From the UHGV virus genome UHGV-0128496: DNA of 16,551 nucleotides; one strand, written 5' to 3'. The DNA comes from a virus. The number at the start of each line of letters is the position of its first letter. Position 1 is the stretch's first letter. The position numbers and the translations under genes were made by a program. The notes under the pieces were generated by a model. The model saw nothing but the letters and a program-made list of their open reading frames with translations. It did not search any database and was not told the origin of the DNA. Positions 50 through 15,734 of this stretch are shown here, in pieces.

Positions 50-1363
50 TTAACTGACTGATTTTAATAGTCCTATGCTGTTTGTTTGTGGCCTATGGGG
101 CATCAATGGGGCAAAGTCGCCCAGCTTCTGATTCAGCATTGCGATCTGCTCTGCGTTATTGTCTGCCATCCATGCGCCGTACACATTGAAAACCATCTGC
201 GCGCTAGCGTGCCCCATCTGACTGGCTATAAAGCTTGGATTGGCGCCGGCGGCGAGTGACCAGCACGCGTAAGTGTGGCGCGACTGGTAAGCTTTTCGAT
301 GCCTGATCCCCGCCTTTTTTAGCCCTGCGTCCCATGAGTCACCAAACGAATCCACCTTGTAGATAATCCCCACATCCTTACTTCGACGGACTATCTTAGG
401 GTTAAAGACAAATGTACACCGGTGCTTCGCCGTTCTACCATACTCACGCAATTGCACGTTGATGTGATGCTGTTGCCCGAGTCTGGTCATTTCCATCTGA
501 TTCCTTAAAACATCGATGGCTGGCTGAATGAGGTGTATCACTCTATCCGTACTGGCGTCAGTTTTCGGTAGTGTGAACTCGCCCAGCTTTGTATAATTGC
601 GGCGAATTGTTATTGTACCTGCCTCAAGGTCGATATCTTCCCATGCCAGGGAAACCAGCTCCCCGTGACGAACACCTGTGTACACCGCCAGTGACCACAT
701 GTTTTTCGTCTGCTGATGCCGGCATGCATCTATCAGACGGATGAACTCATCACGACTGAGCGGGTCTGGCTCTACCCTGGCTCTTTTTAATGGCTTTATT
801 CCATCAAAGGGATTTGCCTTTATGTACCCATTATCGGCGGCGAACTGGAACATTCCGGCGATAGTCGTCATGTAGTAATTGACGGTGACCGCGCTCCGGC
901 CCTTAACGGGGATCCTGCCCTTTACAGCGCACTGATAACCCATCAAAAGCTCTTTCCTGATATACAGCAACTCTTCTTTCTCAATCGCTGTCACCAGTCG
1001 GCTAGACCCGATCAGCGGTACAACAACAGCAACGACCGACTCGTACCGTTTGTGCGCGTTCGAGCTGATTTCCATCTTTTTCAGATCCAGCCACTTCTCT
1101 TCGAGTTCTTTCACTGTGATTTCTTTCTTTCCCAACCCAAAAATTTTAAGGTTAGGTGAATCTGGAAACCGTTCAGCATAATCAAAGCTTCCCGTGCGGA
1201 TGGCAAAGCATACCGACACCCGCAGTTCCCCGGCTATCTTTCTGTTCTTAGCGGTGTCAGGGACACCGAGGCTTTCCCTGACACGCTTACCTTTAAAATT
1301 AAACCAGATGCGTAAAGTGCCACCGTGGTTTTCGACGCCTGTTGGATATGTGACTTTATCCAT
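50..1363 (-). CDS. int: Phage tyrosine integrase (lambda-Int-like site-specific recombinase)
   Basis: 437-aa ORF with N-terminal arm-type DNA-binding region and C-terminal catalytic-core signature (R in TGVRHGEL, H-x-x-R in HRKAYQSRHTYACW, GHASAQMVFNVYGAW with tyrosine). GGAGG RBS 5 nt upstream of the ATG at 1363. Terminal position and adjacency to xis are typical of a prophage end. Confidence 0.9.
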   Translation of the reverse strand: MDKVTYPTGVENHGGTLRIWFNFKGKRVRESLGVPDTAKNRKIAGELRVSVCFAIRTGSFDYAERFPDSPNLKIFGLGKKEITVKELEEKWLDLKKMEISSNAHKRYESVVAVVVPLIGSSRLVTAIEKEELLYIRKELLMGYQCAVKGRIPVKGRSAVTVNYYMTTIAGMFQFAADNGYIKANPFDGIKPLKRARVEPDPLSRDEFIRLIDACRHQQTKNMWSLAVYTGVRHGELVSLAWEDIDLEAGTITIRRNYTKLGEFTLPKTDASTDRVIHLIQPAIDVLRNQMEMTRLGQQHHINVQLREYGRTAKHRCTFVFNPKIVRRSKDVGIIYKVDSFGDSWDAGLKKAGIRHRKAYQSRHTYACWSLAAGANPSFIASQMGHASAQMVFNVYGAWMADNNAEQIAMLNQKLGDFAPLMPHRPQTNSIGLLKSVS

Positions 1364-1695: not shown

Positions 1696-2274
1696 TTAGT
1701 TGTTGCTGGTGGTTGGGATTAGTTTCTGCCAAATCGCTGAAACATATTTCGCCTGGTGGCGGGCATCAGCCAGTGCGTTATGTGCAACCCCATCAAATGG
1801 CATATCACGCTTAGGATCGAAACCTACAACTCTGCCTAATGTGACGATGGTTCTGACGTCGTGATCATTCCAAAATTGCCACGGGCAAACCTGGCCGGCA
1901 CGCTCATATGCGCCGCGCAATATAACGTTGTCGAAAGTAGCTCCATTGCCCCAAACTTTTAAATATTTAGGGTTATCAGAATGCCGATTAATGAAATGGC
2001 TCAGTTCAGATAGGGCAGATGATATCGGCATCGCATCATCAACACAGATTGCTGATCGTGCTTCTGAGCTTTGTCTTAACCACCACAGAATAGTGTCACC
2101 GTCCGGCACCGCTCCCTGCTCCATAGCGCTTTCAAGGTTAACGGCGCTGTAAAACTCCTGACCCAGTTCACCGCTTTGCGGATCGAAGAACACGGCACCT
2201 ATGGAGACGATAGGGGCATTTGGTTTTTTGCCCATGGATTCGAGGTCGATCATTAAATTGTTCACGTTATACAT
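1696..2274 (-). CDS. DEDDh-family 3'-5' exonuclease (DnaQ-like)
   Basis: Exo motifs visible: LMIDLESMG (D-x-E), WGNGATFDNVIL, GVAHNALADARHQAKY (H-x4-D). I place the start at the internal ATG at 2274 (MYNVNN...), preceded directly by AGGAGA; the longer track ORF (to 2466) would overlap the upstream gene by 200 nt. Confidence 0.75.
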   Translation of the reverse strand: MYNVNNLMIDLESMGKKPNAPIVSIGAVFFDPQSGELGQEFYSAVNLESAMEQGAVPDGDTILWWLRQSSEARSAICVDDAMPISSALSELSHFINRHSDNPKYLKVWGNGATFDNVILRGAYERAGQVCPWQFWNDHDVRTIVTLGRVVGFDPKRDMPFDGVAHNALADARHQAKYVSAIWQKLIPTTSNN

Positions 2275-3049
2275 TCTCCTGCTGCGGTGCTGCTGCCTGC
2301 TCAGCTGCCATAGCTGCATCGATTTGCTCACGTAATTTGGTCGCGTGATAATCGTCATCTTCATCCGTGATGGTCTGCGACCAGAAAATGCTATGGCTTC
2401 CGTAAACCATAGGCTCACGAACATCAACGGTTTTAGATACCAGCCAGTCCATGCGGAGTACGTCATCCGGAGTTACCGGAGAGTTGCCAGCCTGGAGAAT
2501 AGATTTCAGCGCTGCCCTTGGCATTGCCGACCAGGCAAGGAATACGTCTGGCCTGTCGACATCTTCTGTCGGGAGAGTGTTTTCTATTTCGTCCAGCGCA
2601 TCACTTAGCTTCTGAAATGCGTCGTCTGGAACAACGTGGCACTCTTCGCCATCAACATCTTGCTGACAGCTATCATCTGCGAGTTCGAATGCGGCCCAGC
2701 AAACATTGAGCAGCATTTCAATAACGCGACGGTGTTCTGCTGTTACGCAATTCTCCGGCACTACCTGCGCTGGCGTGGCAGTGTAGAGCGGAATTACCGC
2801 ATCTCCCATTGGCTGAGACAGGCACTTAAGGTGAAGATCACCCATCTTTGCATAAGCCAGAGTTTCCTCAGCGGCATAAAGCACAGGCTCAGCATTCAGG
2901 ACTTCATCAATCACCTTCACAGCATCAGCCATTGCGTAGCCGAGATTACCGCCGTCGCTTTGTGCTGCTGCGTTGCTGAGTATTTCGCTTATCTGGTGCA
3001 GGCGATCGAGTGATACAGGACCGTGCGCCGGGTGGTTGTTAGTTGTCAT
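2267..3049 (-). CDS. Hypothetical acidic phage protein (260 aa), function unknown
   Basis: Long ORF in the coupled early-left operon; AGGGAGGA RBS 7 nt upstream of the ATG at 3049. Asp/Glu-rich with cysteine clusters; no motif I can assign. Confidence 0.6.
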   Translation of the reverse strand: MTTNNHPAHGPVSLDRLHQISEILSNAAAQSDGGNLGYAMADAVKVIDEVLNAEPVLYAAEETLAYAKMGDLHLKCLSQPMGDAVIPLYTATPAQVVPENCVTAEHRRVIEMLLNVCWAAFELADDSCQQDVDGEECHVVPDDAFQKLSDALDEIENTLPTEDVDRPDVFLAWSAMPRAALKSILQAGNSPVTPDDVLRMDWLVSKTVDVREPMVYGSHSIFWSQTITDEDDDYHATKLREQIDAAMAAEQAAAPQQENV

Positions 3050-5262: not shown

Positions 5263-6180
5263 TTAGGCTGCGGGTTTTTGTGGCTGTTCTTCTTTGTACG
5301 AAAGAAGATCACACATCAGGTTTACTACTTTGCTGAATTGGATTAGATCCGTCCCGGCCTGATGGCGCCATTGAAATGCTTTATCATCTTCATCGTTGAA
5401 TGTTTGGGCTTGGGTATTGATGCGCGAAAAATGGAAATTTTCGGTGAGGATGAACGATACACCGCATCCTGCTAGCTCCATTTTATCAGCGGTAAAGCCG
5501 CTATTAAGGCTATCAACTAGCTCGCTTTGAATTGAGTCGTGTTCAGCTGAGTAGCGAATAACTTCATTTTGATCGGCAAGGCGGGACAGCTGGATATAAT
5601 TGCCGACGGTAAACCCTTCAAAAGCATTGGCCACGCCATTGATATAGTTTTTCAACCGCGTAGTTAAACCGTTCTTAATATCGCTAATGTTGATTGTTTC
5701 TGTTTTAACGGAACCGACAACTTTCACCAGCATAGCCACAGCCATACCGGCAATATTTTTATTGGTCGTATTGACCACTAATAGCTTTTCGTTGGTGCTG
5801 TACAACGCAAGGATCAGCGTTGATTTAACAAATGCCCGTTTACACAGGTCAACGCGGACGCTGTCGATAATTGCTAATCGTTCGATACGTTTGATTTTAC
5901 TCCCGGACATATCTTCGATTCTTTGGATCCGTGCTGCGGCTTCCTTCAAAACAACATGCTGGGGAATGATTTTCTGATCATGGCGGATCACGATGGCATA
6001 CCCACCTGATATTGGGGTGACCAATTCGCCAGTGATCGGGTTTGGCACAAAAGAGGCGCGTGAAAACTCAGTTTCACCAATCTCGGAGTAGGGGAGTTCA
6101 AGCAGATGCCCCTCGATAGCTTCAATGCTAGGTAGTGTGGCGCGGTACACGATTGCGTTACGGAACTTAGGTAATTTCAT
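5263..6180 (-). CDS. rdgC: RdgC-like recombination-associated protein
   Basis: 305-aa ORF whose length and sequence pattern (N-terminal FRNAIVYR, central hydrophobic core, C-terminal acidic tail) match my memory of E. coli RdgC (about 303 aa). AGAGGAAAG RBS 5 nt upstream of the ATG at 6180. Confidence 0.65.
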   Translation of the reverse strand: MKLPKFRNAIVYRATLPSIEAIEGHLLELPYSEIGETEFSRASFVPNPITGELVTPISGGYAIVIRHDQKIIPQHVVLKEAAARIQRIEDMSGSKIKRIERLAIIDSVRVDLCKRAFVKSTLILALYSTNEKLLVVNTTNKNIAGMAVAMLVKVVGSVKTETINISDIKNGLTTRLKNYINGVANAFEGFTVGNYIQLSRLADQNEVIRYSAEHDSIQSELVDSLNSGFTADKMELAGCGVSFILTENFHFSRINTQAQTFNDEDDKAFQWRHQAGTDLIQFSKVVNLMCDLLSYKEEQPQKPAA

Positions 6181-6513
6181 TTAACTTTCCTCTGCACAAG
6201 GTTTTAGTCCATACACGAAGTTAAGGCGGCTGCCACCGCCGAACTTTCTCCATACACAACAGAGAAGGGCACCTGCATTAGTCGGCGGCTTGAGAGACCG
6301 CTTTCTTTTTGCCCGGGTGGATTGGGTTATGAGCCCGTCGCCCGGTGATGCCCTTTTCTGTTGTGCCCTGAAAAAGGCTGGCGGTTACCGGAAATACACG
6401 GGAAAACACCGGGCCGCCAGAACAGGGAGTTACTTGTTATTGCTTTAGCCTGCTTTTAACCACATCAGGCGCGGTGGTATCTTGGTGTTCTCACACAACC
6501 AAGAGGGATGTTT

Positions 6514-7153: not shown

Positions 7154-7873
7154 TTAGCCAAACTCTATCATTTTTAGAGGTAAGCATCTGATTAGCTTGC
7201 CGAATATGTATAGTTCATTCATTTCATGCTCCTCTATGAAGAAGGGCGGGTAATGTTCATTGTCTGAAAGAACTGCCAGTCGGCGCCCTTTTACCTTCTG
7301 CAAACGTTTAACGAACGTACTGTCTTCAAAATTGAACACATAAACGCCGTCGCCGCTGAATTGTTCAACCTTGCTGTCTATGAAAAGCAGGTCCTTTGGG
7401 CAAAGCGTGGGCATCATGCTATCGCCATCAACATTTATCATGACGATGCCATCAAGGCTTCTACGACCAAACAACTCGAAGATCCTCTCTTCTGGAATCT
7501 CTATTGAGCTCACTATTGTAGGGAATGGTTGGTTTATATATCCGGAACCGGCTGAAGCATGAACATCCAATTGCTCTATTCTGACCGTGCCTTTGGCTGG
7601 CGCGTCGCCACCATTAACAGGCACACCATAATCAAGATAAGCCGGTGAGACGGCAAGTCTTTCTGCAATTCGAATCATCTTCTCATCTCTCGGCTTTGCA
7701 GTACCAAGAGTGTAGCGCCGCGCCATCTCATACGAGACACCACTGAACTCTGACAATTCTTTAACTCCAATAGATTGCTCTTGGAGAGACCTGTTTAGCC
7801 TTTCGGCAAAGTCTTTGTATTTAGCATTTTCCACCATAAGTAGAAGATTAAGCGCACAAGGCATAGTTGTCAT
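7154..7873 (-). CDS. cI: CI-like prophage repressor (N-terminal HTH, C-terminal S24 LexA-type peptidase)
   Basis: HTH segment VKELSEFSGVSYEMARRY; S24 self-cleavage signature VDGDSMMPT (Ser) and FVKRL (Lys). Coordinates are the maximal ORF. The in-frame ATG at 7837 (MVENAKYKDF...) is the more likely start: a PRM-like promoter (-35 ATGACA, complement of 7868-7873; 17-bp spacer; -10 TAATCT, complement of 7845-7850) would place the transcript start at that ATG, giving a leaderless mRNA as for lambda cI. Confidence 0.85.
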   Translation of the reverse strand: MTTMPCALNLLLMVENAKYKDFAERLNRSLQEQSIGVKELSEFSGVSYEMARRYTLGTAKPRDEKMIRIAERLAVSPAYLDYGVPVNGGDAPAKGTVRIEQLDVHASAGSGYINQPFPTIVSSIEIPEERIFELFGRRSLDGIVMINVDGDSMMPTLCPKDLLFIDSKVEQFSGDGVYVFNFEDSTFVKRLQKVKGRRLAVLSDNEHYPPFFIEEHEMNELYIFGKLIRCLPLKMIEFG

Positions 7874-7914
7874 TTCTATTTTAAGTTGCTAATAATTGCT
7901 ACTATAAGTAGTAT
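7831..7914. promoter_or_regulatory. Immunity-region operators with divergent PRM/PR promoters
   Basis: Three inverted-repeat sites of type CTACT-N3-AGTAG: perfect CTACT-ATA-AGTAG (7899-7911), degenerate CTATT-TTA-AGTTG (7876-7888) and CCACC-ATA-AGTAG (7831-7843). PR candidate: -35 TTGCTA (7886-7891), 17-bp spacer, -10 TAGTAT (7909-7914), upstream of the cro RBS AGGAGA (7933-7938). The operators overlap the -35 and -10 elements of both promoters. Confidence 0.45.
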
Positions 7915-7942
7915 TGATGCAGGCTTAGTCATAGGAGAACAC

Positions 7943-8200
7943 ATGTCATCTCAACACAAGAATGTAACAGCTAAAGCTGTGAAGGCGATCGGGTCGATTT
8001 CAGAGGTATCAAGGCGGTTTGAATTCCAATCAGTTCAATCTGTTGCGAACTGGATTGCAAAGAACCGAGTACCTTCTGAAAGAGTTATTCAACTCTGCCA
8101 ATGGGGCGGATGGGTAGTAACTCCCCATCAATTACGACCTGATATTTATCCGAACAAAAATGACGGCATACCTTCCGCTAACAACAATAGTCAACTTTAA
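7943..8200 (+). CDS. cro: Cro-like HTH regulator (YdaS-like)
   Basis: First rightward gene, divergent from cI. AGGAGA RBS 5 nt before the ATG at 7943. The segment AIGSISEVSRRFEFQSVQSVANWIAKNRVP is HTH-like. The track ORF begins at an upstream start with no SD. Confidence 0.6.
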   Translation: MSSQHKNVTAKAVKAIGSISEVSRRFEFQSVQSVANWIAKNRVPSERVIQLCQWGGWVVTPHQLRPDIYPNKNDGIPSANNNSQL

Positions 8201-8231
8201 GTTGATTATTAACTACCAGAGGGAAATCAAC

Positions 8232-8795
8232 ATGGTAGACAGCATAAATACAGCAATCCGCCTGATGTGTAAGGCACACAAGCATGGTCGCTTAGGTATG
8301 GCTTCCGATTTAGGGATGACTATCGACCAGTTCCACAACCACCTGTACCAGAAGTGTGGCAGTCGGTTCTTTACCTTGGCAGAACTGGAACGGATGGAGG
8401 ACCTGTCTGGTTCTTGTTACTTGGCCGAGTACCAGGCGAACCGAAAAGGGAAATGGCTGGTGGATGTTCCAACTGCTGAGAGCCTGGATAACGTTGAGCT
8501 GTACAGCATTGAGATGAAAGCGGCAGCAGCATCTGGTGAGCTGGCTAATGCCAAGATGGCAGCAGCGGCTGATGGGGTAATTGATTCATCAGAGCGCAAA
8601 ACGCTTTCAGAATTATTCAGTAAGAAGCTCCGCCACCAGATTCACGGGTTCCTGGGATTTATGGCGCTTTATGGGGTTGGTGTTTCAGATCAGGCGATTG
8701 ACGTATTCGTTTCAACAGGCAGAAAAGGTGACGCCCGCGAGTGTGCAGCTCCGGGCGCCTTGGCGTGTCGTATCAGTGGAGAAACTAACGCATGA
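8232..8795 (+). CDS. cII-position early protein (possibly YdaT-like), function unknown
   Basis: ORF directly after cro with AGAGGGAAA RBS 7 nt before the ATG at 8232. Its position matches ydaS-ydaT of Rac-like prophages, but I cannot confirm sequence similarity from memory. Confidence 0.45.
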   Translation: MVDSINTAIRLMCKAHKHGRLGMASDLGMTIDQFHNHLYQKCGSRFFTLAELERMEDLSGSCYLAEYQANRKGKWLVDVPTAESLDNVELYSIEMKAAAASGELANAKMAAAADGVIDSSERKTLSELFSKKLRHQIHGFLGFMALYGVGVSDQAIDVFVSTGRKGDARECAAPGALACRISGETNA

Positions 8796-9130
8796 ACAGT
8801 GTAAACCGATTCAGACCAGCTAAGCAATTCAGATGTTTGCCGCTGGTGGGTAAAGATGCCCAGTTCGGCTATGTGGAAATCATAAATAACGCGGCTGATG
8901 GAGGCAACTACCAGCCAGCAGACTTGATGGTAGAAGCATTTGTTCAGATGAACGAGAAGGGGCGCGAGGAATGGCTGAAGTTAACCGGCGGTTCAGAGAT
9001 CACTACGGAGTTCCCGTCAGAGTTGTCCGCTGGGAGCCAGATACACAGCGCGTTATATACCTTCGCGAAGGGTACGATCATGAGTGCTTCAGCCCTCTTG
9101 AACAATTCCAGCGTAAATTTACAGAATTAA
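8792..9130 (+). CDS. Hypothetical early protein (112 aa)
   Basis: Its ATG overlaps the upstream stop (ATGA), so it is coupled within the early-right operon. No recognisable motif. Confidence 0.5.
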   Translation: MNSVNRFRPAKQFRCLPLVGKDAQFGYVEIINNAADGGNYQPADLMVEAFVQMNEKGREEWLKLTGGSEITTEFPSELSAGSQIHSALYTFAKGTIMSASALLNNSSVNLQN

Positions 9131-9139
9131 AGGACGACC

Positions 9140-9994
9140 ATGAGCACTAAATTAACCGGTTACGTATGGGATGCATGCGCTTCGTCAGGCATGAAGTTAT
9201 CCAGCGTTGCCATCATGGCGCGTCTGGCAGACTTCAGCAGTGATGAAGGGGTTAGCTGGCCTTCCATCGCTACCATCGCGCGCCAGATTGGTGCTGGTGA
9301 GAGCACGGTTCGTACAGCCATATCTCAGCTGGAAAAAGATGGTTGGTTAACCCGCCAGCAGCGCCGTAAAGGCAACCGAAATGCATCGAACGTTTACCAG
9401 CTCAATGTTGCGAAATTGCAGGCTGCTGCCTTTTCTCACCTGTCAGATTCTGACGCATCAAAATCTGATGCCTCAAAAACAGACGCGTCAAAATCTGAGG
9501 CATCAAAAAACGATGAAAAAGGCGGTTTTCACCCGTCAGAATCTGGGGGGGATCCGTCAGTAAATACAACTACTGATCCATCAGTTAAAAAACCTTCTTG
9601 TCCGGTTGCGCCGCAACCAGACCCTGAAGTGATGATCACCGATAACGCCATCCTGGTTCTGAATCATCTGAACCTGGTTAGTGGCTCACGATACCAAAAA
9701 TCAAAAACTTCTCTGGAAAACATCCGTGCTCGTCTGCGTGAAGGTTACACCGTTAGCGACTTACAGCTGGTGATCGACCTTAAGCATGAGCACTGGAACG
9801 GCAATGACGTGCAGTACCAGTACATGCGTCCTGAAACGCTCTTCGGTCCGAAAAAATTTGAAGGTTATCTGCAAAGCGGGATCCGCTGGGACAAGAAGGG
9901 GCGGCCACCGCGTGACAGCTGGGGTGAAAAGAAACATGACCCGATGAAGTTCGGTCCGGTTGATAGCAAGATTCCAGAGGGGTTCAGAGGATGA
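9140..9994 (+). CDS. Replication initiation protein (lambda-O-like; N-terminal winged HTH, conserved phage C-terminal domain)
   Basis: N-terminus VAIMARLADFSSDEGVSWPSIATIARQIGAGESTVRTAISQLEKDGWL is typical of HTH_36-type initiators. A low-complexity linker (DASKS x4) precedes a conserved C-terminal domain (VLNHLNLVSGSRYQ ... LFGPKKFEGYLQ). The position after the cro/cII module matches a replication gene. Confidence 0.7.
   Translation: MSTKLTGYVWDACASSGMKLSSVAIMARLADFSSDEGVSWPSIATIARQIGAGESTVRTAISQLEKDGWLTRQQRRKGNRNASNVYQLNVAKLQAAAFSHLSDSDASKSDASKTDASKSEASKNDEKGGFHPSESGGDPSVNTTTDPSVKKPSCPVAPQPDPEVMITDNAILVLNHLNLVSGSRYQKSKTSLENIRARLREGYTVSDLQLVIDLKHEHWNGNDVQYQYMRPETLFGPKKFEGYLQSGIRWDKKGRPPRDSWGEKKHDPMKFGPVDSKIPEGFRG
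9452..9511 (+). repeat. Four tandem 15-bp iteron-like repeats inside the initiator gene (putative origin)
   Basis: gacgcatcaaaatct / gatgcctcaaaaaca / gacgcgtcaaaatct / gaggcatcaaaaaac, with partial copies on both sides. Each has a near-palindromic GAYGCRTC core and an A-tract. Lambda ori likewise lies as iterons inside the O gene. Confidence 0.45.
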
Positions 9995-11325
9995 TGGAAA
10001 ATAAATACTGCCGTGCACTGGCTGAACTCCGTTCAAAACCAGCACACGAGTTGAAAGAGGTCGGTGATCAATGGCGCACTCCGGATCTGTTGTTTTGGGG
10101 GATCAATGCGATGTTCGGCCCTCTGGTGTTGGACCTTTTTGCCGACGACAGCAACGCGAAGTGCCCAGCATGGTACACGGCTGAAGATAATGCCCTGACG
10201 CAGGATTGGTCAGAGCGGCTGGCAGAACTCGGTGGTGCCGGGTTTGGCAACCCGCCTTACAGCCGCTCTCAGTACCACGACAAGCAGGCCGTTACCGGAA
10301 TGACCCACATCATTAACCACGCTATGGCCATGCGAGAAAAGGGTGGTCGGTACGTTTTTCTCATTAAGTCTGCGACGAGTGAAACGTGGTGGCCGGAAGA
10401 GGCAGATCACGTCACATTCATCCGTGGCCGAATTGGTTTCGATCTTCCTACATGGTTCGTGCCGAAAGACGAAAAGCAGCAGCCCACCAGCGCATTTTTT
10501 GCTGGCGCTATCGTGGTCTTCGACAAAACATGGCGGGGTGAGCGTTTCAGTTACATCAACCGCACCGACCTGGAGGCCAAAGGCCGTGCTGCGATGTCGC
10601 TGGCCCAATTTGCCGTGGGAAGAACGCAAACTGATGCGGCGCCAGAGCTGGACGCTGAGGTAGTGCCGAAGAAATCAGAGGCAGAACTGCCATTAACCCA
10701 AAAAGCCATTCTGGAAACCAGCGGTGTAGAGGCTTGGGCCTGTGTTGTCGCGGCGTTCGGCGAGAAAGACGAGTACACCTTCAGCGAGTCAAAGTTTGGT
10801 CATACCTGGGCTGCCGACTCTCTGGAAAACCCTGAATTTACCAATGTTTCACCGCTGACGATCGACAGAGCGAAAAAGCTGATCAGCGAGAGCATCCTGG
10901 TGGGTGTTAATGCATGGCTGGAAACATTGCCCTTTGATAGCGATGACGTGAAACAAGACATGTCAGAGCGGTTACGCACGGTTGCCGTTGAGTCTGCGAA
11001 AGAATACGGCATTAACCACAGTGAATTCATCGCGACCATGGAAAGCCTGGATAAAGCCAAATGGTCAAATATTCGGGGGATCCGCGCCCATGTCCGTGAG
11101 ACGCAGGAATCAAAGGACAAGGCGTTAAACGAATCGCGCGTTTGGCCTCTTGAGGTTGGACTGGTGTTTAACCAGATTGAAGGGGCTGACGCTCTACCTG
11201 TTTCGCAGCAGAACAAGCTGAAAGCCAATATCAACCAGCTGTGGCTCGAACGTATGCCGACGAGTGAAATTATCACGACCGCTGGTGGTCTCTTCAACAG
11301 CATGCAGGGGGCCGTCAATGCGTGA
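9991..11325 (+). CDS. Phage Dam-family N6-adenine DNA methyltransferase with about 240-aa C-terminal extension
   Basis: N-terminal about 200 aa carry WRTPD and the catalytic FGNPPYS (NPPY) motif of phage Dam-type N6A MTases. Its ATG overlaps the initiator stop (ATGATG). Residues about 205-444 have no motif I recognise. Confidence 0.8.
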   Translation: MMENKYCRALAELRSKPAHELKEVGDQWRTPDLLFWGINAMFGPLVLDLFADDSNAKCPAWYTAEDNALTQDWSERLAELGGAGFGNPPYSRSQYHDKQAVTGMTHIINHAMAMREKGGRYVFLIKSATSETWWPEEADHVTFIRGRIGFDLPTWFVPKDEKQQPTSAFFAGAIVVFDKTWRGERFSYINRTDLEAKGRAAMSLAQFAVGRTQTDAAPELDAEVVPKKSEAELPLTQKAILETSGVEAWACVVAAFGEKDEYTFSESKFGHTWAADSLENPEFTNVSPLTIDRAKKLISESILVGVNAWLETLPFDSDDVKQDMSERLRTVAVESAKEYGINHSEFIATMESLDKAKWSNIRGIRAHVRETQESKDKALNESRVWPLEVGLVFNQIEGADALPVSQQNKLKANINQLWLERMPTSEIITTAGGLFNSMQGAVNA

Positions 11326-13255
11326 AATTATCGTTGATAACTTTGCTGGTGGCGGCGGCGCGAGTACCGGCATTGAACTGGCGATCGGGCGTAGCGTGGA
11401 TATCGCTATCAACCACGACGAAAACGCTATTGCGATGCATAAGACGAATCACCCTGACACGCTGCATTATTGCGAGTCGGTGTTTGACGTTGACCCAAGC
11501 GCAGCCACCAGCGGTAAACCTGTCGGTCTGGCCTGGTTTAGCCCTGACTGCCGCCACTTTTCCAAGGCGAAGGGCGCTAAGCCGGTTAAGAAAGAGATTC
11601 GCGGGCTGGCGTGGATTGTCCTGCGCTGGGCGCTGGCAGTACGTCCCCGCGTCATGATGCTGGAGAACGTCGAAGAGTTTAAGACATGGGGCCCGCTGCT
11701 GGATGAAGAATTACGCCCGGATCCTGAGCGTGCTGGCGAAACATTCGAGGCATTTGTCGGCATGCTGTCGACGGGGATCGCGGCGAATCACCCTGCGCTG
11801 GCTGAGGTTTGTGAATTCCTTGCCATTGAGCCGCACGGCCAGCAGGCGCAACAGCTGATCGCCGGGCTTGGTTATGAGGTTGATTATCGGGAGCTGCGCG
11901 CATGTGACTACGGCGCGCCGACGATCAGAAAGCGTTTCTTCATGGTCATGCGCTGTGACGGCCGCAAGATTCATTGGCCTGAAGCGACTCATGGGGATCC
12001 AAAATCACTGGAAGTACAAAGCGGCAAGCTGGCGCCATGGCGTACCGCGGCGGAGTGCATTGACTGGAATATCCCGGCCCGGTCCATCTTCGACCGCAAA
12101 AAGCCGCTGGCGGAAAATACGCTCAAACGTATCGCGCGCGGCATCCAGCGCTTTGTTATCGAAAGCGCATCACCTTTCATCGTGAAGTGTAACCACACCA
12201 CGACGAAAGGAGGTTATGACTGTTTCCGCGGGCAATCGTTGTTAGAGCCATTGCAGACCATCACTAAAAAGCATGGCTACGCACTGGCGGTACCGCATCT
12301 TACTAAATTCCGCACCGGGGCCACCGGGCAGCCAGTGACCGAGCCGGTACCAACTGTCACCGCTGGTACGTCGGCGCGCCCGGGCGGGAATGGGCATGCG
12401 CTTGGCGTAGTTGAGGCCGCCCTGACACCGTTCCTGGCTGGCAATGGCGGCAGTGAGTACCAGGCAAAGCCGCGCCCGCTGGATAAACCCGCTCATACAA
12501 TCCTCAAGCAGTCCCGCGCGTGCGTGGTTGCGCCGGTCATCGCCCGCCAGTTTGGAGCCAGTGTTGGGCACAGGGCTGACGAACCGAGTGCGACGATTAC
12601 TGCAGGTGGTGGCGGTAAGTCGCAGCTGGTAACTCCAACACTGATCCAGATGGGGTACGGCGAACGCCCAGGGCAAGAACCGCGTGTTCTTCAACTGAAT
12701 AACCCGCTCGGCACGGTCACTGCTGGTGGTAATAAGTTTGCAACGGTGAGCGCGTTCCTGGCGAAGCACTATGGTGGGAATTACACGGGGCCGGGTGTTG
12801 GTATGGATGAGCCTGCCCACTCAGTCACTACTGTTGATCACCACGCGGTAGTTGCGTCGCACCTGGTGAAGCTGCGCGGAACCTGCCGCGACGGTCAGAC
12901 CATGGATACACCTATGCCGACGATTACCGCTGGTGGCCAGCACGTTGGCGAGGTCCGGACATTCCTCGAAACCTACTGCGGTGATAGCGAGGATGAATGG
13001 CTGGTGACGATCGAGGGGGTTAAGTACCAGATCGTCGATATCGGAATGCGCATGCTGCAACCGCATGAGCTTTATAAGGCGCAGGGCTTCCCTGACGGCT
13101 ACGTTATCGATCAGGACTATCGCGGCAATCGTTACGCCAAAGACAAGCAGGTAGCGCGCTGTGGTAACGCAGTACCGCCGCCGTTCGCTCGTGCGCTGGT
13201 AGAAGCAAATCTTCCTGAATTATGTGCAAATCAAAAGGCGGGTGCAGCCGCCTGA
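11318..13255 (+). CDS. DNA cytosine-5 methyltransferase (large, repeat-containing variable region)
   Basis: Motif I FAGGGGAS, an ENV motif (MLENVEEF) and C-terminal CGNAVPPP; the Cys motif reads SPDCRHFS rather than canonical PCQ. Start taken at the ATG at 11318 (MREIIVDNFAGGGG), overlapping the Dam stop; the track ORF extends upstream in the same frame. The region between the catalytic and C-terminal motifs holds about five P-x-x-T-[VI]-T-A-G-G repeats. Confidence 0.8.
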   Translation: MREIIVDNFAGGGGASTGIELAIGRSVDIAINHDENAIAMHKTNHPDTLHYCESVFDVDPSAATSGKPVGLAWFSPDCRHFSKAKGAKPVKKEIRGLAWIVLRWALAVRPRVMMLENVEEFKTWGPLLDEELRPDPERAGETFEAFVGMLSTGIAANHPALAEVCEFLAIEPHGQQAQQLIAGLGYEVDYRELRACDYGAPTIRKRFFMVMRCDGRKIHWPEATHGDPKSLEVQSGKLAPWRTAAECIDWNIPARSIFDRKKPLAENTLKRIARGIQRFVIESASPFIVKCNHTTTKGGYDCFRGQSLLEPLQTITKKHGYALAVPHLTKFRTGATGQPVTEPVPTVTAGTSARPGGNGHALGVVEAALTPFLAGNGGSEYQAKPRPLDKPAHTILKQSRACVVAPVIARQFGASVGHRADEPSATITAGGGGKSQLVTPTLIQMGYGERPGQEPRVLQLNNPLGTVTAGGNKFATVSAFLAKHYGGNYTGPGVGMDEPAHSVTTVDHHAVVASHLVKLRGTCRDGQTMDTPMPTITAGGQHVGEVRTFLETYCGDSEDEWLVTIEGVKYQIVDIGMRMLQPHELYKAQGFPDGYVIDQDYRGNRYAKDKQVARCGNAVPPPFARALVEANLPELCANQKAGAAA

Positions 13256-13269
13256 TATGGAGAAATAGC

Positions 13270-13962
13270 ATGAATCAGTTAACCGCTAAGGGTGTTGTGA
13301 CAATGTCCAGCCGTGAAATTGCCAGGCTGGTGCAGAGCAAACATGGTGATGTGAAGCGCTCAGCTGAGCGCCTTGCATCTGCTGGTATTTTAACCGCGCC
13401 GTTGGCGCACACCCCCTACACACACCCGCAAAACGGGCAAACCTACGAGGAGTATTGGTTTAACAAACGTGATTCTCTGGTGATCGTCGCCAGGCTGTCG
13501 CCAGAATTTACCGCCGCTGTTGTCGATCGCTGGCAAGAGCTGGAGAACAGCCAGGCCGTAAGTGTCCCGCAAACATTGCCGGAGGCATTACGTCTCGCCG
13601 CGGATCTGGCCGAGCAGAAAGAACAACTCAGCCAGCAGTTAGCCGCTGCCGCGCCGAAAGTTGAGTTTGTCGATCGATATTGTACTGCCAAAGGCTCAAT
13701 GTCTTTCCGCCAGGTGGCAAAGCTGTTGCAGGCCAAAGAGACCGATTTCCGCTTGTTCCTCATTGAGAGCGGCATTTTGTACCGGCTCAGTGGAGTGCTG
13801 ACACCTCGGCACCAGCACATTGCTGCCGGGCGGTTTGAAGTGAAAACTGGCACTACGAGCGAAACAAACTACGCCTTTAGCCAGGCACGTTTTACACCCA
13901 AAGGCATCGAGTGGATCGGCGGCCTGTGGACGGCACACATCGCTAAGGGGCATGCCGCGTGA
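13270..13962 (+). CDS. Rha-family regulator / antirepressor (Rha N-terminal domain plus KilA-C/ANT-like C-terminus)
   Basis: N-terminus MSSREIARLVQSKHGDVKRSAERL resembles the Rha domain; C-terminal EALRLAADLAEQKEQL ... KVEFVDRY resembles ANT/KilA-C. GGAGAAA RBS 5 nt before the ATG at 13270. Confidence 0.65.
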   Translation: MNQLTAKGVVTMSSREIARLVQSKHGDVKRSAERLASAGILTAPLAHTPYTHPQNGQTYEEYWFNKRDSLVIVARLSPEFTAAVVDRWQELENSQAVSVPQTLPEALRLAADLAEQKEQLSQQLAAAAPKVEFVDRYCTAKGSMSFRQVAKLLQAKETDFRLFLIESGILYRLSGVLTPRHQHIAAGRFEVKTGTTSETNYAFSQARFTPKGIEWIGGLWTAHIAKGHAA

Positions 13963-15020
13963 GAGGACTGTTTACAGCCGAGACTGTTCCGCGCCTTGGG
14001 CTTGTGCTGTTAAAGCCGGGTAGCGAACTGATGTCTTTGTTTCAACAGGGGCGTGTGCTGGTGGAGCCTCAGCCAAAAAGCATGGCTGGGCTTCCGTCGG
14101 GGCTCGTCCCTGATGCCCGGCAGCCGCTGGCAGAAGATAAGTCCCTCGAGGAATTCTTCACCGACGAGAGAGTTATCCGTGCAGCAGGCGGTTTGTCCGG
14201 GTTGGAATCCTGGCTAGAGCGTAACGTGAAGGAATGCCAGTACCCGCACACTAATTATCACCATCATGAGCTGGTAACGATGCGACATCCCCCTGGATCA
14301 ATGTTGCTCTGTTGGCATTGCGATAACCAGCTGCGCGAGCAAACCACCGCGGCGCTGGCAGAACTGGCCCGGCGTAATCTCATTAACTGGCTGATCAGTT
14401 CTATCCTGTCTTCGCTTGGCTACAACAACGAGCGTGAACTATCCCTCGGTGAATTGTGCTGGTGGGCCGTTTACTCAGGCATTGCTGATGCAATCACGGA
14501 AAGGATGGCCCAGCATGCGCTTCGCTTACCGGATGAGCCGTTTTTATCCGTATATCGCGAAAGTGACATTGTGCCGATGCCACCGACAAAAAACATTTTG
14601 CAGAAGAAGGTCACCCCTGCGGTCACGGCTGCGCATTTAAAGCATGGAACAAATCAGGAAGTGGCCTATGACCAGCCACAGGTTCTGGCTCTGCATGCGG
14701 ATCCTGAATCCCCTGAATCATTCATGTTGCGCCCAAAACACCGCAGGTGGGTGAATGAGGACTATACCCGGTGGGCTAAAACCCAGCCCTGTGAAGGTTG
14801 CCGGCGGCCAGCGGATGATCCACACCATGTCATTGGTCACGGCATGGGCGGTACCGCCACTAAAGCCCACGATTTGTTCGTGATCCCTCTGTGCAGAGAG
14901 TGTCACGACAAATTACATGCTGATGTTGCAGCGTTCGAGAAAAAACACGGTACCCAGCTGGAGCTGCTATTCCGATTTATGAATCGAGCGCTGGCGATCG
15001 GCGTAATAACAAAAGCGTAA
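13959..15020 (+). CDS. DUF968-like prophage protein with C-terminal HNH-like zinc motif
   Basis: GTG start overlapping the Rha stop (GTGA), with AAGGGG 8 nt upstream. C-terminus PCEGCRRPADDPHHVIGHGMGGTATKAHDLFVIPLCRECHDKLH has an HNH-like arrangement (CxxC ... HH ... CxxCH). I recall DUF968 (YdfU-like) proteins sitting next to Q in Qin-like prophages. Confidence 0.5.
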   Translation: MRGLFTAETVPRLGLVLLKPGSELMSLFQQGRVLVEPQPKSMAGLPSGLVPDARQPLAEDKSLEEFFTDERVIRAAGGLSGLESWLERNVKECQYPHTNYHHHELVTMRHPPGSMLLCWHCDNQLREQTTAALAELARRNLINWLISSILSSLGYNNERELSLGELCWWAVYSGIADAITERMAQHALRLPDEPFLSVYRESDIVPMPPTKNILQKKVTPAVTAAHLKHGTNQEVAYDQPQVLALHADPESPESFMLRPKHRRWVNEDYTRWAKTQPCEGCRRPADDPHHVIGHGMGGTATKAHDLFVIPLCRECHDKLHADVAAFEKKHGTQLELLFRFMNRALAIGVITKA

Positions 15021-15041
15021 TTGTATGGAGCGCTGAGCATA

Positions 15042-15734
15042 ATGAATTTACAAGAACTGGAATATACGCGGATTGAACTGCGCCGCGCGCTGGCGGATTT
15101 ATCAGGATCGACAAAAGGACAGCTGCAGGCGTTCAGTGAGCATCCACCAGCAGATAAGAATAAATACCCCCGGCACCATCCTGAAATCGTCATGGAGGGT
15201 GGGGAAGGTTGTGGGTCAAAGGTTGTAACAACGCTGGCCACTCCATTTTATGTTCTTGAGACAAGGAGCCGTCGTCGACCTTTGCCGCCTATTAAAGATA
15301 CGGAGTTCGCTTGTTCAGCATGGCGTCGTTCGGTCAATGGTCTGGGTGAGCATTTGCAGGCATGGGTGCGGTACTGCTATGGGTATGACCTTACTTTCCG
15401 GTACCAGACATTGATGTGCCAGCACGTGTGGGAACAGTTTCAGCGTCAGCATAGCGGCAAAAAAATACAGGGCCGCGTCACTAAAAAACTGGTAGGGCTT
15501 GTCTGGCTGGCGGCGCAAGAAGTTGCTGCCTCGCGTAATAACGATACCTATCAGGAGTATGCTGGTGCAGCTCTGGCGCGCATGGTCAGCGTTGAGCGTT
15601 CCACCTGGCTCAGAGTGTATTCAGGCCACTGGGCGGCTTTCAAAGCGTCGTTTGCTGAAATGGATAGCCAGGCACTAAGCGAAATTTTGTCACGGTACGA
15701 AGAGTACCAAGAACTGAAAGTGGCGGAAATGTGA
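15042..15734 (+). CDS. Late-gene antitermination protein Q-like
   Basis: Last gene of the early-right operon, immediately upstream of a promoter-plus-terminator pair. Size and sequence fit my recollection of enterobacterial Q-like proteins. Start placed at the ATG at 15042 (MNLQELEY...). Confidence 0.5.
   Translation: MNLQELEYTRIELRRALADLSGSTKGQLQAFSEHPPADKNKYPRHHPEIVMEGGEGCGSKVVTTLATPFYVLETRSRRRPLPPIKDTEFACSAWRRSVNGLGEHLQAWVRYCYGYDLTFRYQTLMCQHVWEQFQRQHSGKKIQGRVTKKLVGLVWLAAQEVAASRNNDTYQEYAGAALARMVSVERSTWLRVYSGHWAAFKASFAEMDSQALSEILSRYEEYQELKVAEM

Follow-up and report, generated by a model that had tools for sequence, protein, structure and literature searches.

A predicted replication origin within the linker-coding part of the initiator gene of a lambdoid temperate phage

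Results and Discussion

The DNA analysed here is a stretch of 16,551 nucleotides of the virus genome UHGV-0128496 (referred to as the window), which by its gene map and by domain searches represents the early region of a lambdoid temperate phage. Its replication initiator gene contains a tandem array of 15-bp repeats that is followed by an AT-rich tract. Positions 9442-9599, which comprise both elements, are predicted to be the origin of bidirectional (theta) replication of this phage, located inside the linker-coding part of its own initiator gene. Based on sequence comparisons, we consider this prediction probable. A previous sequence-only reading of the window had proposed the array as the likely origin, and this view is now supported, as a prediction, by the conservation of the repeats at the DNA level, by their co-variation with the N-terminal domain (N-domain) of the initiator, and by the minimum of duplex stability that adjoins them.

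The repeat array

The array is composed of five near-palindromic 13-bp units (9442-9454, 9457-9469, 9472-9484, 9487-9499 and 9502-9514), the third and fifth of which are degenerate, and a sixth site is located 33 bp past the fifth unit (Table 1). Tandem Repeats Finder (TRF) detected a period of 15 at 9449-9508 (4.0 copies, 77% match, score 78) and a better-fitting period of 30 at 9452-9509 (89% match, score 95), and a separate repeat search returned four copies with 15-bp spacing at 9442-9515. In 100 dinucleotide-preserving shuffles of the window, TRF scores reached at most 59, and the array is therefore non-random. Thus, the tandem repeat that had been noticed at 9444-9521 inside the initiator gene is real, but larger than originally delimited. 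Exact matches to TCARAWTCTG are present in the 16.5-kb window only at 9443, 9458, 9488 and 9536. An apparent inverted copy at 9526-9545 was rejected as such, because it merely represents the sixth direct site of a unit that is itself palindromic.

Codon reading confirmed that the repeat encodes a (D/E)ASK(S/T/N) linker. In particular, the array is translated as LSDSD-ASKSD-ASKTD-ASKSE-ASKND, in frame within the open reading frame (ORF) 9140-9994, and this linker is placed between the HTH_36 winged helix and the Phg_2220_C domain. The five units and the distal site correspond to codons 102-137, directly after the winged helix (amino acids 1-100). No DnaA box (TTWTNCACA) was found in 8700-10300, where the only two matches with one mismatch are both located away from the array. 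DnaA boxes that adjoin an unwinding element, by which an origin would be classed as oriC-like (DnaA-dependent), are thus not present here.

The RNA corresponding to 9430-9610 has a predicted folding energy of -55.2 kcal/mol, as compared to a mean of -36.4 kcal/mol for shuffled sequences (z = -5.2). Accordingly, the palindromic repeats could act in the mRNA, where their structure would influence how well the initiator message is translated or how stable it is. We regard this as hardly tenable, because tandem dyad-symmetric units give such folding by construction. Moreover, long-range pairs would all be displaced by the variation from about 2 to 6 units among relatives, the palindrome is conserved within each single unit and not via compensatory changes, and no Rfam family matches the array region. 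At the level of DNA, tandem palindromes would permit the formation of hairpins or a cruciform in unwound origin DNA.

Conservation of the repeats at the DNA level

The series of relatives that we compared extends from 90% down to approximately 52-64% identity and includes Klebsiella phages, SfIV, Citrobacter phiNP, Yersinia YeP2, phiP27, Stx2_KH16-043, 'Elizabethkingia' EKP1 and the circular Klebsiella phage L103. The DNA comparison was performed by tblastn against phage genomes; a protein search with the N-domain gave mostly truncated fragments. In all relatives that share the N-domain, 3.3-6.3 copies of a 15-bp repeat directly follow the winged helix. The linker peptides differ among these relatives (DASKS, DPSKS, DTSKS, EPSKS, DPSDS and, in L103, GRSESEPSESGRPESE), but the DNA core TCARAWTCTGA (CAGAWTCTG, or the 13-bp palindrome GTCAGAWTCTGAC) is kept under all of them. 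In phiP27 and KH16-043, the 19-nucleotide motif TTGACCCTTCAGAWTCTGG is even present twice, 32 nucleotides apart and in two reading frames, such that the two copies are translated as F-D-P-S-D-S-G and L-T-L-Q-N-L, respectively. Furthermore, 167 of the 190 serine codons in the linkers are TCA or TCT, versus 62 of 247 outside the linker. The same bias is seen in the window alone (14 of 14 in the linker versus 5 of 20 elsewhere; Fisher p = 1e-5). The fraction of identical codons at conserved N-domain residues goes down to 0.32 in relatives with 64% identity, which is near saturation. A comparison of repeat numbers, which had been suggested as a check, showed that they vary by whole units, with one unit less in P0214, two less in P0220, two more (30 bp) in Escherichia coli ECONIH4 and up to about six in ECONIH6. 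The preservation of the core under differing peptides, the occurrence of the motif in a second frame, the fixation of TCA/TCT and the variation by whole units together argue for selection on the repeat DNA, and not only on the peptide. Homologues that lack the repeat at the nucleotide level would have spoken against the idea of an origin, but despite their different peptides the homologues keep it down to 52-64% identity of the N-domain or protein.

Alternatively, the array could be only a slippage-prone, low-complexity Asp/Ala/Ser/Lys linker, the nucleotide similarity of which stems from recent unit duplications without any role of the DNA. Indeed, the period of 15 equals five codons and the copy number changes by whole units. 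In the window clade the period, being a multiple of three, stays in frame, and the Asp and Ala/Pro codons are variable at their third positions, so that the window alone can be read in this way. Amino acids 103-161 were modelled at low confidence and without secondary structure, although this is weak evidence as the model is poor. A linker without a DNA role does not explain why the same DNA core is found under entirely different peptides and in a second reading frame, or why TCA/TCT is fixed in spite of near-saturation at synonymous sites elsewhere. Likewise, it does not explain the equivalent arrays with periods of 22 and 23 bp in other initiator types, or the dyad symmetry of the units in every type (see below). 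We therefore disfavour a pure peptide linker and consider it quite unlikely.

Two observations concern the linker in fragmentary sequences. In P0224, which is a single contig of 961 nucleotides, the repeat region is read in a different frame (PTRQNLRHQKTMRKAVFTRQNLG) up to DPSVNTTT, where the original frame is restored. This frame change may be a sequencing error; if it is not, the linker peptide is dispensable. In addition, P0053-P0068 and many more entries are short proteins (~100-170 amino acids) that represent the initiator N-domain and end at or near the repeats. Some of these match Pfam PF05866, with the source names RusA family or 'phage O protein family', and some are found on up to 39 contigs. 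These short proteins look like the result of deletions during prophage decay, or of contig breaks at the repeat.

Co-variation of repeats and N-domains

Seven N-domain types, namely that of the window clade and six more, each have their own dyad-symmetric repeat at the equivalent place. Among the distant HTH_36 proteins, F403/Min27 (41-44% identity) has three 24-bp units with the dyad GGGGCAG-GAG-CTGCCCC, Klebsiella RothD has two 24-bp units (TGCCAT-CTG-ATGGCA) and Vibrio D77 has three (24 bp, GTGAC...GTCAC). Initiators with unrelated N-domains are represented by the L006 type, which has five 22-bp units (TTCCGC-N6-GCGGAA; 9 of 10 loci), and the L095 type, which has six 23-bp units (GGTCAAARTGNAC). 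As periods of 22 and 23 bp are not divisible by three, these are not peptide repeats. Within the N-domain of the window clade, the segment ESTVRTAI is invariant in relatives with the same repeat core. In L103 this segment is altered to STVITLI, and the flanks of the repeats are altered too.

A scan of IMG/VR with the C-terminal domain (C-domain) of the window initiator yielded 80 loci, the C-domains of which are 85-100% identical to that of the window. These loci sort into the window type, with 69 members, and the L006 and L095 types. The N-domains of the three types are unrelated, and the sequences converge on a common junction (...CPVAPQPDPEV). Mosaic breakpoints revealed by megablast in E. 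coli genomes are located at ORF nucleotides 369, 452 and 451-457, where the array and the AT-rich tract end. The breakpoints and the shared junction suggest that the N-domain, the repeats and the AT-rich tract are exchanged together, as a single module. Judged by these alignments, the C-domain is a module separate from this specificity module. The product of the upstream gene, DUF4222, does not co-vary with the repeats, since it is 69% identical in L006, which has different repeats, and only 33-38% identical in YeP2 and EKP1, which have the same repeats. By this comparison, DUF4222 is not the specificity determinant.

The position of the breakpoints and the joining of three N-domain types to one C-domain could also mean that the linker DNA is mainly a homology patch for recombination, by which N- and C-modules are shuffled among lambdoid phages. 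However, the shared junction lies after the AT-rich tract and not in the repeats, and the repeats are type-specific. A homology patch would also leave the dyad symmetry, the tandem arrangement and the second-frame motif unexplained. We consider this explanation very improbable, and recombination at the linker is more likely a side effect than its function.

The AT-rich tract

Directly 3' of the array lies the least stable 40-mer of the initiator gene (9560-9599; z 3.0, 70% AT). It overlaps two 24-bp units that span 9551-9598 and that each begin with GATC (at 9551 and 9575). The least stable 40-mer is also found directly 3' of the repeats in lambda (z 3.0), L006 (3.0), YeP2 (2.9) and F403 (2.0); in phiP27 the corresponding segment is only the second least stable. 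The GATC units are conserved in relatives and their number varies in P0213, and GATC is not enriched over the window as a whole (71 occurrences versus 65 expected). This tract is the candidate unwinding region of the predicted origin.

With regard to GATC, we also noted that the tracts of phiP27, EKP1 and L103 contain three such sites, and that the L006 tract consists of three units of approximately 13 bp (GATCAT...), one of which is in a different codon frame. A phage Dam gene lies downstream of the modules that have GATC-starting units (the window, L006, L007, L008, L010, L011, L012, L018 and L103); in F403, RothD and D77, which are distant types, both the GATC units and the Dam neighbour are missing.

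The initiator protein

In Pfam searches, the window initiator matched HTH_36 at amino acids 23-70 (37.6 bits, cut-off 25) and Phg_2220_C at amino acids 173-245 (81.5 bits, cut-off 27), and it matched TIGR02220 with 70.3 bits (cut-off 66.65). As all three scores are above the curated cut-offs, the protein is an HTH_36 plus Phg_2220_C phage replication protein. PHROG families 11896, 428 and 391 ('replication initiation / O-like') also match, the 'O-like' family 391 with an E-value of 5.5e-49. Nevertheless, 'O-like' is a functional label only and the protein does not belong to the lambda O family: no match to Phage_rep_O (PF04492) was obtained at E≤0.01, whereas lambda O scored 123.4 bits in a comparable search. 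DnaD_N was found at a sub-threshold 24.7 bits (cut-off 27), and weak PHROG matches were seen to the 'DnaD-like helicase loader' families 1701 and 186. A link of the C-domain to DnaD/DnaB_2 is unsupported, as Pfam searches of this domain gave nothing but Phg_2220_C even at E≤10. The label 'primosomal protein' that some relatives bear was not borne out either, because the window protein has no DnaT match and a sub-threshold DnaT-domain match was seen only in RothD. A sequence search of the PDB returned only generic winged-helix regulators (E>0.02).

The initiator gene of the window matches the partial record KM389288.1 (Escherichia phage Phi06_2987 S) at 100% identity, and its counterparts in the complete coliphages Flotzy, LLS and Eeyore at about 96%. 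The initiator type as a whole comprises 2,431 protein clusters and is frequently found among the prophages of E. coli, Enterobacter, Klebsiella, Citrobacter, Salmonella and Shigella.

Helicase loading and a proposed mechanism

The initiator gene is the only replication-type gene of the window according to Pfam and PHROG, and the same applies to LLS, the record of which is a complete genome with cohesive ends and E. coli K-12 as the host. No helicase, loader or primase domains were detected in the larger ORFs of the window with Pfam and PHROG, or among the 63 features of LLS. Similarly, no helicase or loader is present in the 41 of 46 features viewed of a syntenic phage that was assembled as a 44-kb circle. 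The observation from sequence alone that no P-type, DnaC-like or DnaB-like gene follows the initiator, and that the next genes encode Dam and C5 methyltransferases, was thus confirmed and holds for both the window and LLS. The Dam gene is a recurrent neighbour of this initiator type and occupies the place of the helicase loader gene directly 3' of the initiator gene. Homologous N-domains elsewhere are followed by DnaC plus DnaB (phiP27), by a primase-helicase or toprim protein (SI8, F403 and EKP1) or by a P-like protein (RothD).

We propose that the rightward early transcript would yield the initiator after derepression, and that the initiator N-domain, probably in the form of dimers, would fill the five or six sites to give a nucleoprotein complex resembling the O-some. 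The strain would be released by melting of the adjoining AT-rich, GATC-starting repeats. As the phage encodes no loader of its own, host DnaB-DnaC may then be recruited, or another host primosome route opened, by the Phg_2220_C domain, by the conserved tail at the C-terminus, or by both. A far more tentative idea, which we ourselves hold to be doubtful, is that of an 'initiator-only' lambdoid replicon. Here, one protein would mark the origin via closely packed 15-bp palindromes and dock the host helicase machinery through its tail, and Dam would act on the GATC-starting unwinding repeats to license or time repeated firing.

The tail, with the consensus VD(Y)Sx(I/L)Px(x)GFR(G/S), is found at the end of six initiators, namely those of the window (VDSKIPEGFRG, 9962-9991), L003 (the E. 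coli Nissle 1917 prophage), L006, L008, L009 and L010. These six have two C-domain types, and none of them has a phage helicase or loader gene as a neighbour. The seven initiators that do have such a partner (phiP27, KH16-043, SI8, F403, RothD, EKP1 and lambda) lack the tail, as do YeP2 and D77. The tail is a candidate for docking a host replication factor.

A search of plasmid collections for a natural mini-replicon with the window initiator revealed an excised e14 element, a circle that we refer to as L101 and a circularised whole phage, and was not decisive. L101 (NZ_CP148542.1) is a 15,977-bp circular E. coli 'plasmid' without plasmid replicon typing, and it consists of an early and a late phage fragment with genes for a repressor and Cro, for RusA, Q and lysis functions, for a DnaC-like ATPase and for an initiator homolog of 34% identity that is not annotated. 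This circle may be an artefact of assembly, or else a naturally occurring mini-replicon resembling lambda-dv.

Weighing the prediction

The sites may be bound by the initiator, or by another phage protein, for a purpose other than replication initiation, such as autoregulation of the early operon, handcuffing for copy control or a roadblock, with the true origin being located elsewhere. Plasmid iteron-binding Rep proteins also use such sites for autorepression and handcuffing. Moreover, the co-variation with the N-domain shows only cognate recognition and not unwinding, and the AT-rich tract is modest. On the other hand, position and polarity match those of the proven origin of lambda, with repeats followed by the least stable segment within the initiator ORF, and the 16.5-kb early region contains no other repeat array and no second exact motif match elsewhere. 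In addition, about 1.5 kb separate the array from the divergent repressor/cro promoter region upstream, and an operator would be poorly placed there. Altogether, we consider a non-origin role unlikely and an origin at 9442-9599 the better explanation.

Several findings nonetheless weigh against the prediction of an origin. Besides the in-frame period of the window clade and the missing match to Phage_rep_O, these include Salmonella SI8, an HTH_36 relative that has no array. The units of the window abut at 15 bp, whereas the sites in lambda are 20-24 bp apart. A 15-bp spacing amounts to 1.43 helical turns, or 154 degrees per step, which places adjacent sites on nearly opposite faces of the helix. 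The A-tracts are unphased as well (vector sum 0.22 versus 0.60 in lambda), so sites about two turns apart with phased A-tracts, as would serve bending and O-some-type wrapping, are not found in the window. The AT content of the tract is lower than that of lambda (70% versus 77%), and its low stability may derive in part from the coding of a Lys/Asn/Thr-rich linker. Lastly, recruitment of the helicase from the host is something that we purely infer: no DnaD/DnaB_2-type similarity was detected in the C-domain, and the AlphaFold model, which was based on a shallow alignment, is poor (mean predicted local distance difference test score 46) and unusable for this step.

Other features of the window

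The features of the window are listed in Table 1. Two overlapping ORFs precede the initiator gene, one of 112 amino acids at 8792-9130 (phrog_1170, annotated as SfIV_40) and the other encoding the 59-residue DUF4222 protein, and both have family support. In their overlap, 35 substitutions distinguish the window from SfIV-type relatives, and 24 of them affect third codon positions when read in the DUF4222 frame. DUF4222 is therefore the selected frame, although the 112-residue ORF is open in all relatives checked. The Dam gene of the window encodes 444 amino acids, and the Dam domain takes up only residues 19-199; the homologous gene in LLS encodes 295 amino acids. PHROG 111 aligns to residues 1-443 over profile positions 40-344 of 345. 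The window enzyme thus seems to contain a large insertion or an extra domain. Two other tandem repeats, ACCGGGAAAAC x2.5 at 6387-6413 in the gap between the RdgC and ClpX-zinc-finger genes and an 11-bp unit x1.9 at 12546-12567 inside the C5 methyltransferase gene, have low scores (33 and 37) that are inside the range of the shuffled sequences.

Table 1. Features of the window and of its predicted origin, with positions, strand and supporting evidence or remarks.
Feature	Position	Strand	Evidence or remarks
Integrase	50-1363	-	
Exonuclease	1696-2466	-	
RdgC	5263-6180	-	
LexA/S24-type repressor	7154-7873	-	
Cro-like YdaS	7886-8200	+	
CII/YmfL-like	8160-8795	+	
DUF4222	8971-9150	+	Pfam DUF4222, E=5e-18; overlaps initiator start; conserved neighbour
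Replication initiator, 284 amino acids	9140-9994	+	N-terminal winged helix, repeat-encoded linker, Phg_2220_C C-domain
N-terminal DNA-binding (specificity) domain, amino acids 1-100	9140-9439	+	Alignment of 12 relatives
Iteron array, five 13-bp near-palindromes (G/A/C)TCARAWNNNGA(C/T/G), 15-bp spacing	9442-9514		TRF, repeat search, relatives
Distal sixth site GTCAGAATCTGGG	9535-9547		Kept in all clade members
AT-rich candidate unwinding region, two 24-bp units GATCCGTCAGTAAATACAACTACT / GATCCATCAGTTAAAAAACCTTCT	9549-9599		Stability profile, GATC units
C-terminal module (Phg_2220_C and tail VDSKIPEGFRG)	9590-9994	+	Common to initiators with three unrelated N-domains, 85-100% identity
Dam (N6-adenine) methyltransferase	9991-11325	+	Pfam Dam, E=1.9e-43; TIGR01712, 204.9 bits
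C5 methyltransferase	11264-13255	+	
Ant	13222-13962	+	
DUF968/HNH	13959-15020	+	
Q	15021-15734	+	

Significance

The blueprint of an origin inside the initiator gene is textbook knowledge for lambda, and the predicted origin of the window would apply it with a different initiator family and without a phage helicase loader. Features of mild interest are the closely packed 15-bp sites, the GATC-starting AT-rich units in the neighbourhood of a phage Dam gene, and the lack of a loader. Related types are present in Shiga toxin (Stx) phages with non-lambda replication regions, the origins of which are unmapped in the literature examined. Likewise, no origin mapping for the initiator family of the window was found in the searchable literature, a search that did not extend to the compendium of Weigel and Seitz (2006). 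A testable origin prediction would provide a handle on the replication-based control of prophage induction, on the copy number of toxin phages, on the building of mini-replicons and on the question of DnaB loading in a lambdoid phage that encodes neither P nor DnaC nor DnaB itself. The comparison also offers a simple rule for finding origins in the whole family, namely that the N-domain, its repeats and the AT-rich tract form one exchangeable unit.

Comparison with known origins

The closest parallel is the origin of lambda within gene O. In our control analysis of lambda (NC_001416), Phage_rep_O was matched at amino acids 22-115 and the annotated iterons correspond to O codons 117-145. Thus, in lambda as in the window, dyad-symmetric repeats directly follow the part that codes for the DNA-binding domain, the least stable AT-rich tract (77% AT and z 3.0 in lambda) lies 3' of them, the repeats encode a dispensable linker, and their copy number differs between relatives. 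The element also occupies the same place in the rightward early operon, downstream of the analogues of cro and cII. At least three tandem dyad-symmetric sites 3' of the DNA-binding domain, a promoter-distal AT-rich tract and co-variation with the N-domain, by which an embedded origin of the lambda type may be recognised, are all present in the window; a phased spacing of about two turns and a downstream partner gene of the P or DnaC/DnaB type are not. The differences further include the initiator family, which is Phage_rep_O in lambda and HTH_36 plus Phg_2220_C in the window, and the GATC-starting units in the AT-rich tract of the window. The earlier view that the window mirrors lambda therefore stands for the repeats inside the initiator gene and the AT-rich tract on their 3' side, but not for membership of the lambda O family, the spacing of the sites or the phasing of the A-tracts.

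In lambda and Stx phages the origin is located in the middle of O, with four iterons in lambda and six in Stx phages, in which O is 13 residues longer, and two iterons plus the AT tract suffice for unwinding (PMC7466680). The difference in copy number between lambda and the 933W/P27-type Stx phages with six iterons parallels the variation within the window clade. Homologous N-domains, with 41-90% identity, are found in the other HTH_36-type phage initiators, namely phiP27 L17, the 'O' protein (Eru5) of Min27/Stx2a_F403, RothD, D77 and the 'replication protein' of SfII/SfIV/SfV. They share the tandem dyad-symmetric repeat at the equivalent place and the synteny of the early region, whereas their C-domains and partner genes differ, and the distant members have 24-bp repeats of different sequence. 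Papers on the Eru types mention HTH_36 proteins without analysing the origins (PMC8951638, PMC8044961).

The protein Fhv_0043 of Francisella phage KIRK is a Phg_2220_C 'replication protein' with an internal KDNNK x3 repeat and annotated iterons (PMC7924643). It differs from the window initiator in its distant host and sequence, and a putative helicase gene has been reported nearby (PMC7924643). Compared by published description, the two share the Phg_2220_C domain with an internal repeat of 5 amino acids (15 bp), and a putative iteron origin in the same regulatory region. In Gram-positive phages, replisome organisers such as SPP1 G38P with oriL, and those of lactococcal and staphylococcal phages, also have origin repeats inside the gene for the origin-binding protein. 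The origin-binding role of G38P has been described (PMC5499656). Modules of the SPP1 type differ in that they encode a helicase loader and/or a helicase, and they show only sub-threshold similarity to the window initiator.

Finally, the unwinding element of E. coli oriC consists of AT-rich 13-mers that start with GATC and is under the control of Dam and SeqA. The window differs from oriC in having no DnaA boxes near the array and, in its clade, units of 24 bp. It resembles oriC in the presence of short, AT-rich and GATC-starting repeats beside the initiator sites, and in the window a Dam gene is adjacent.

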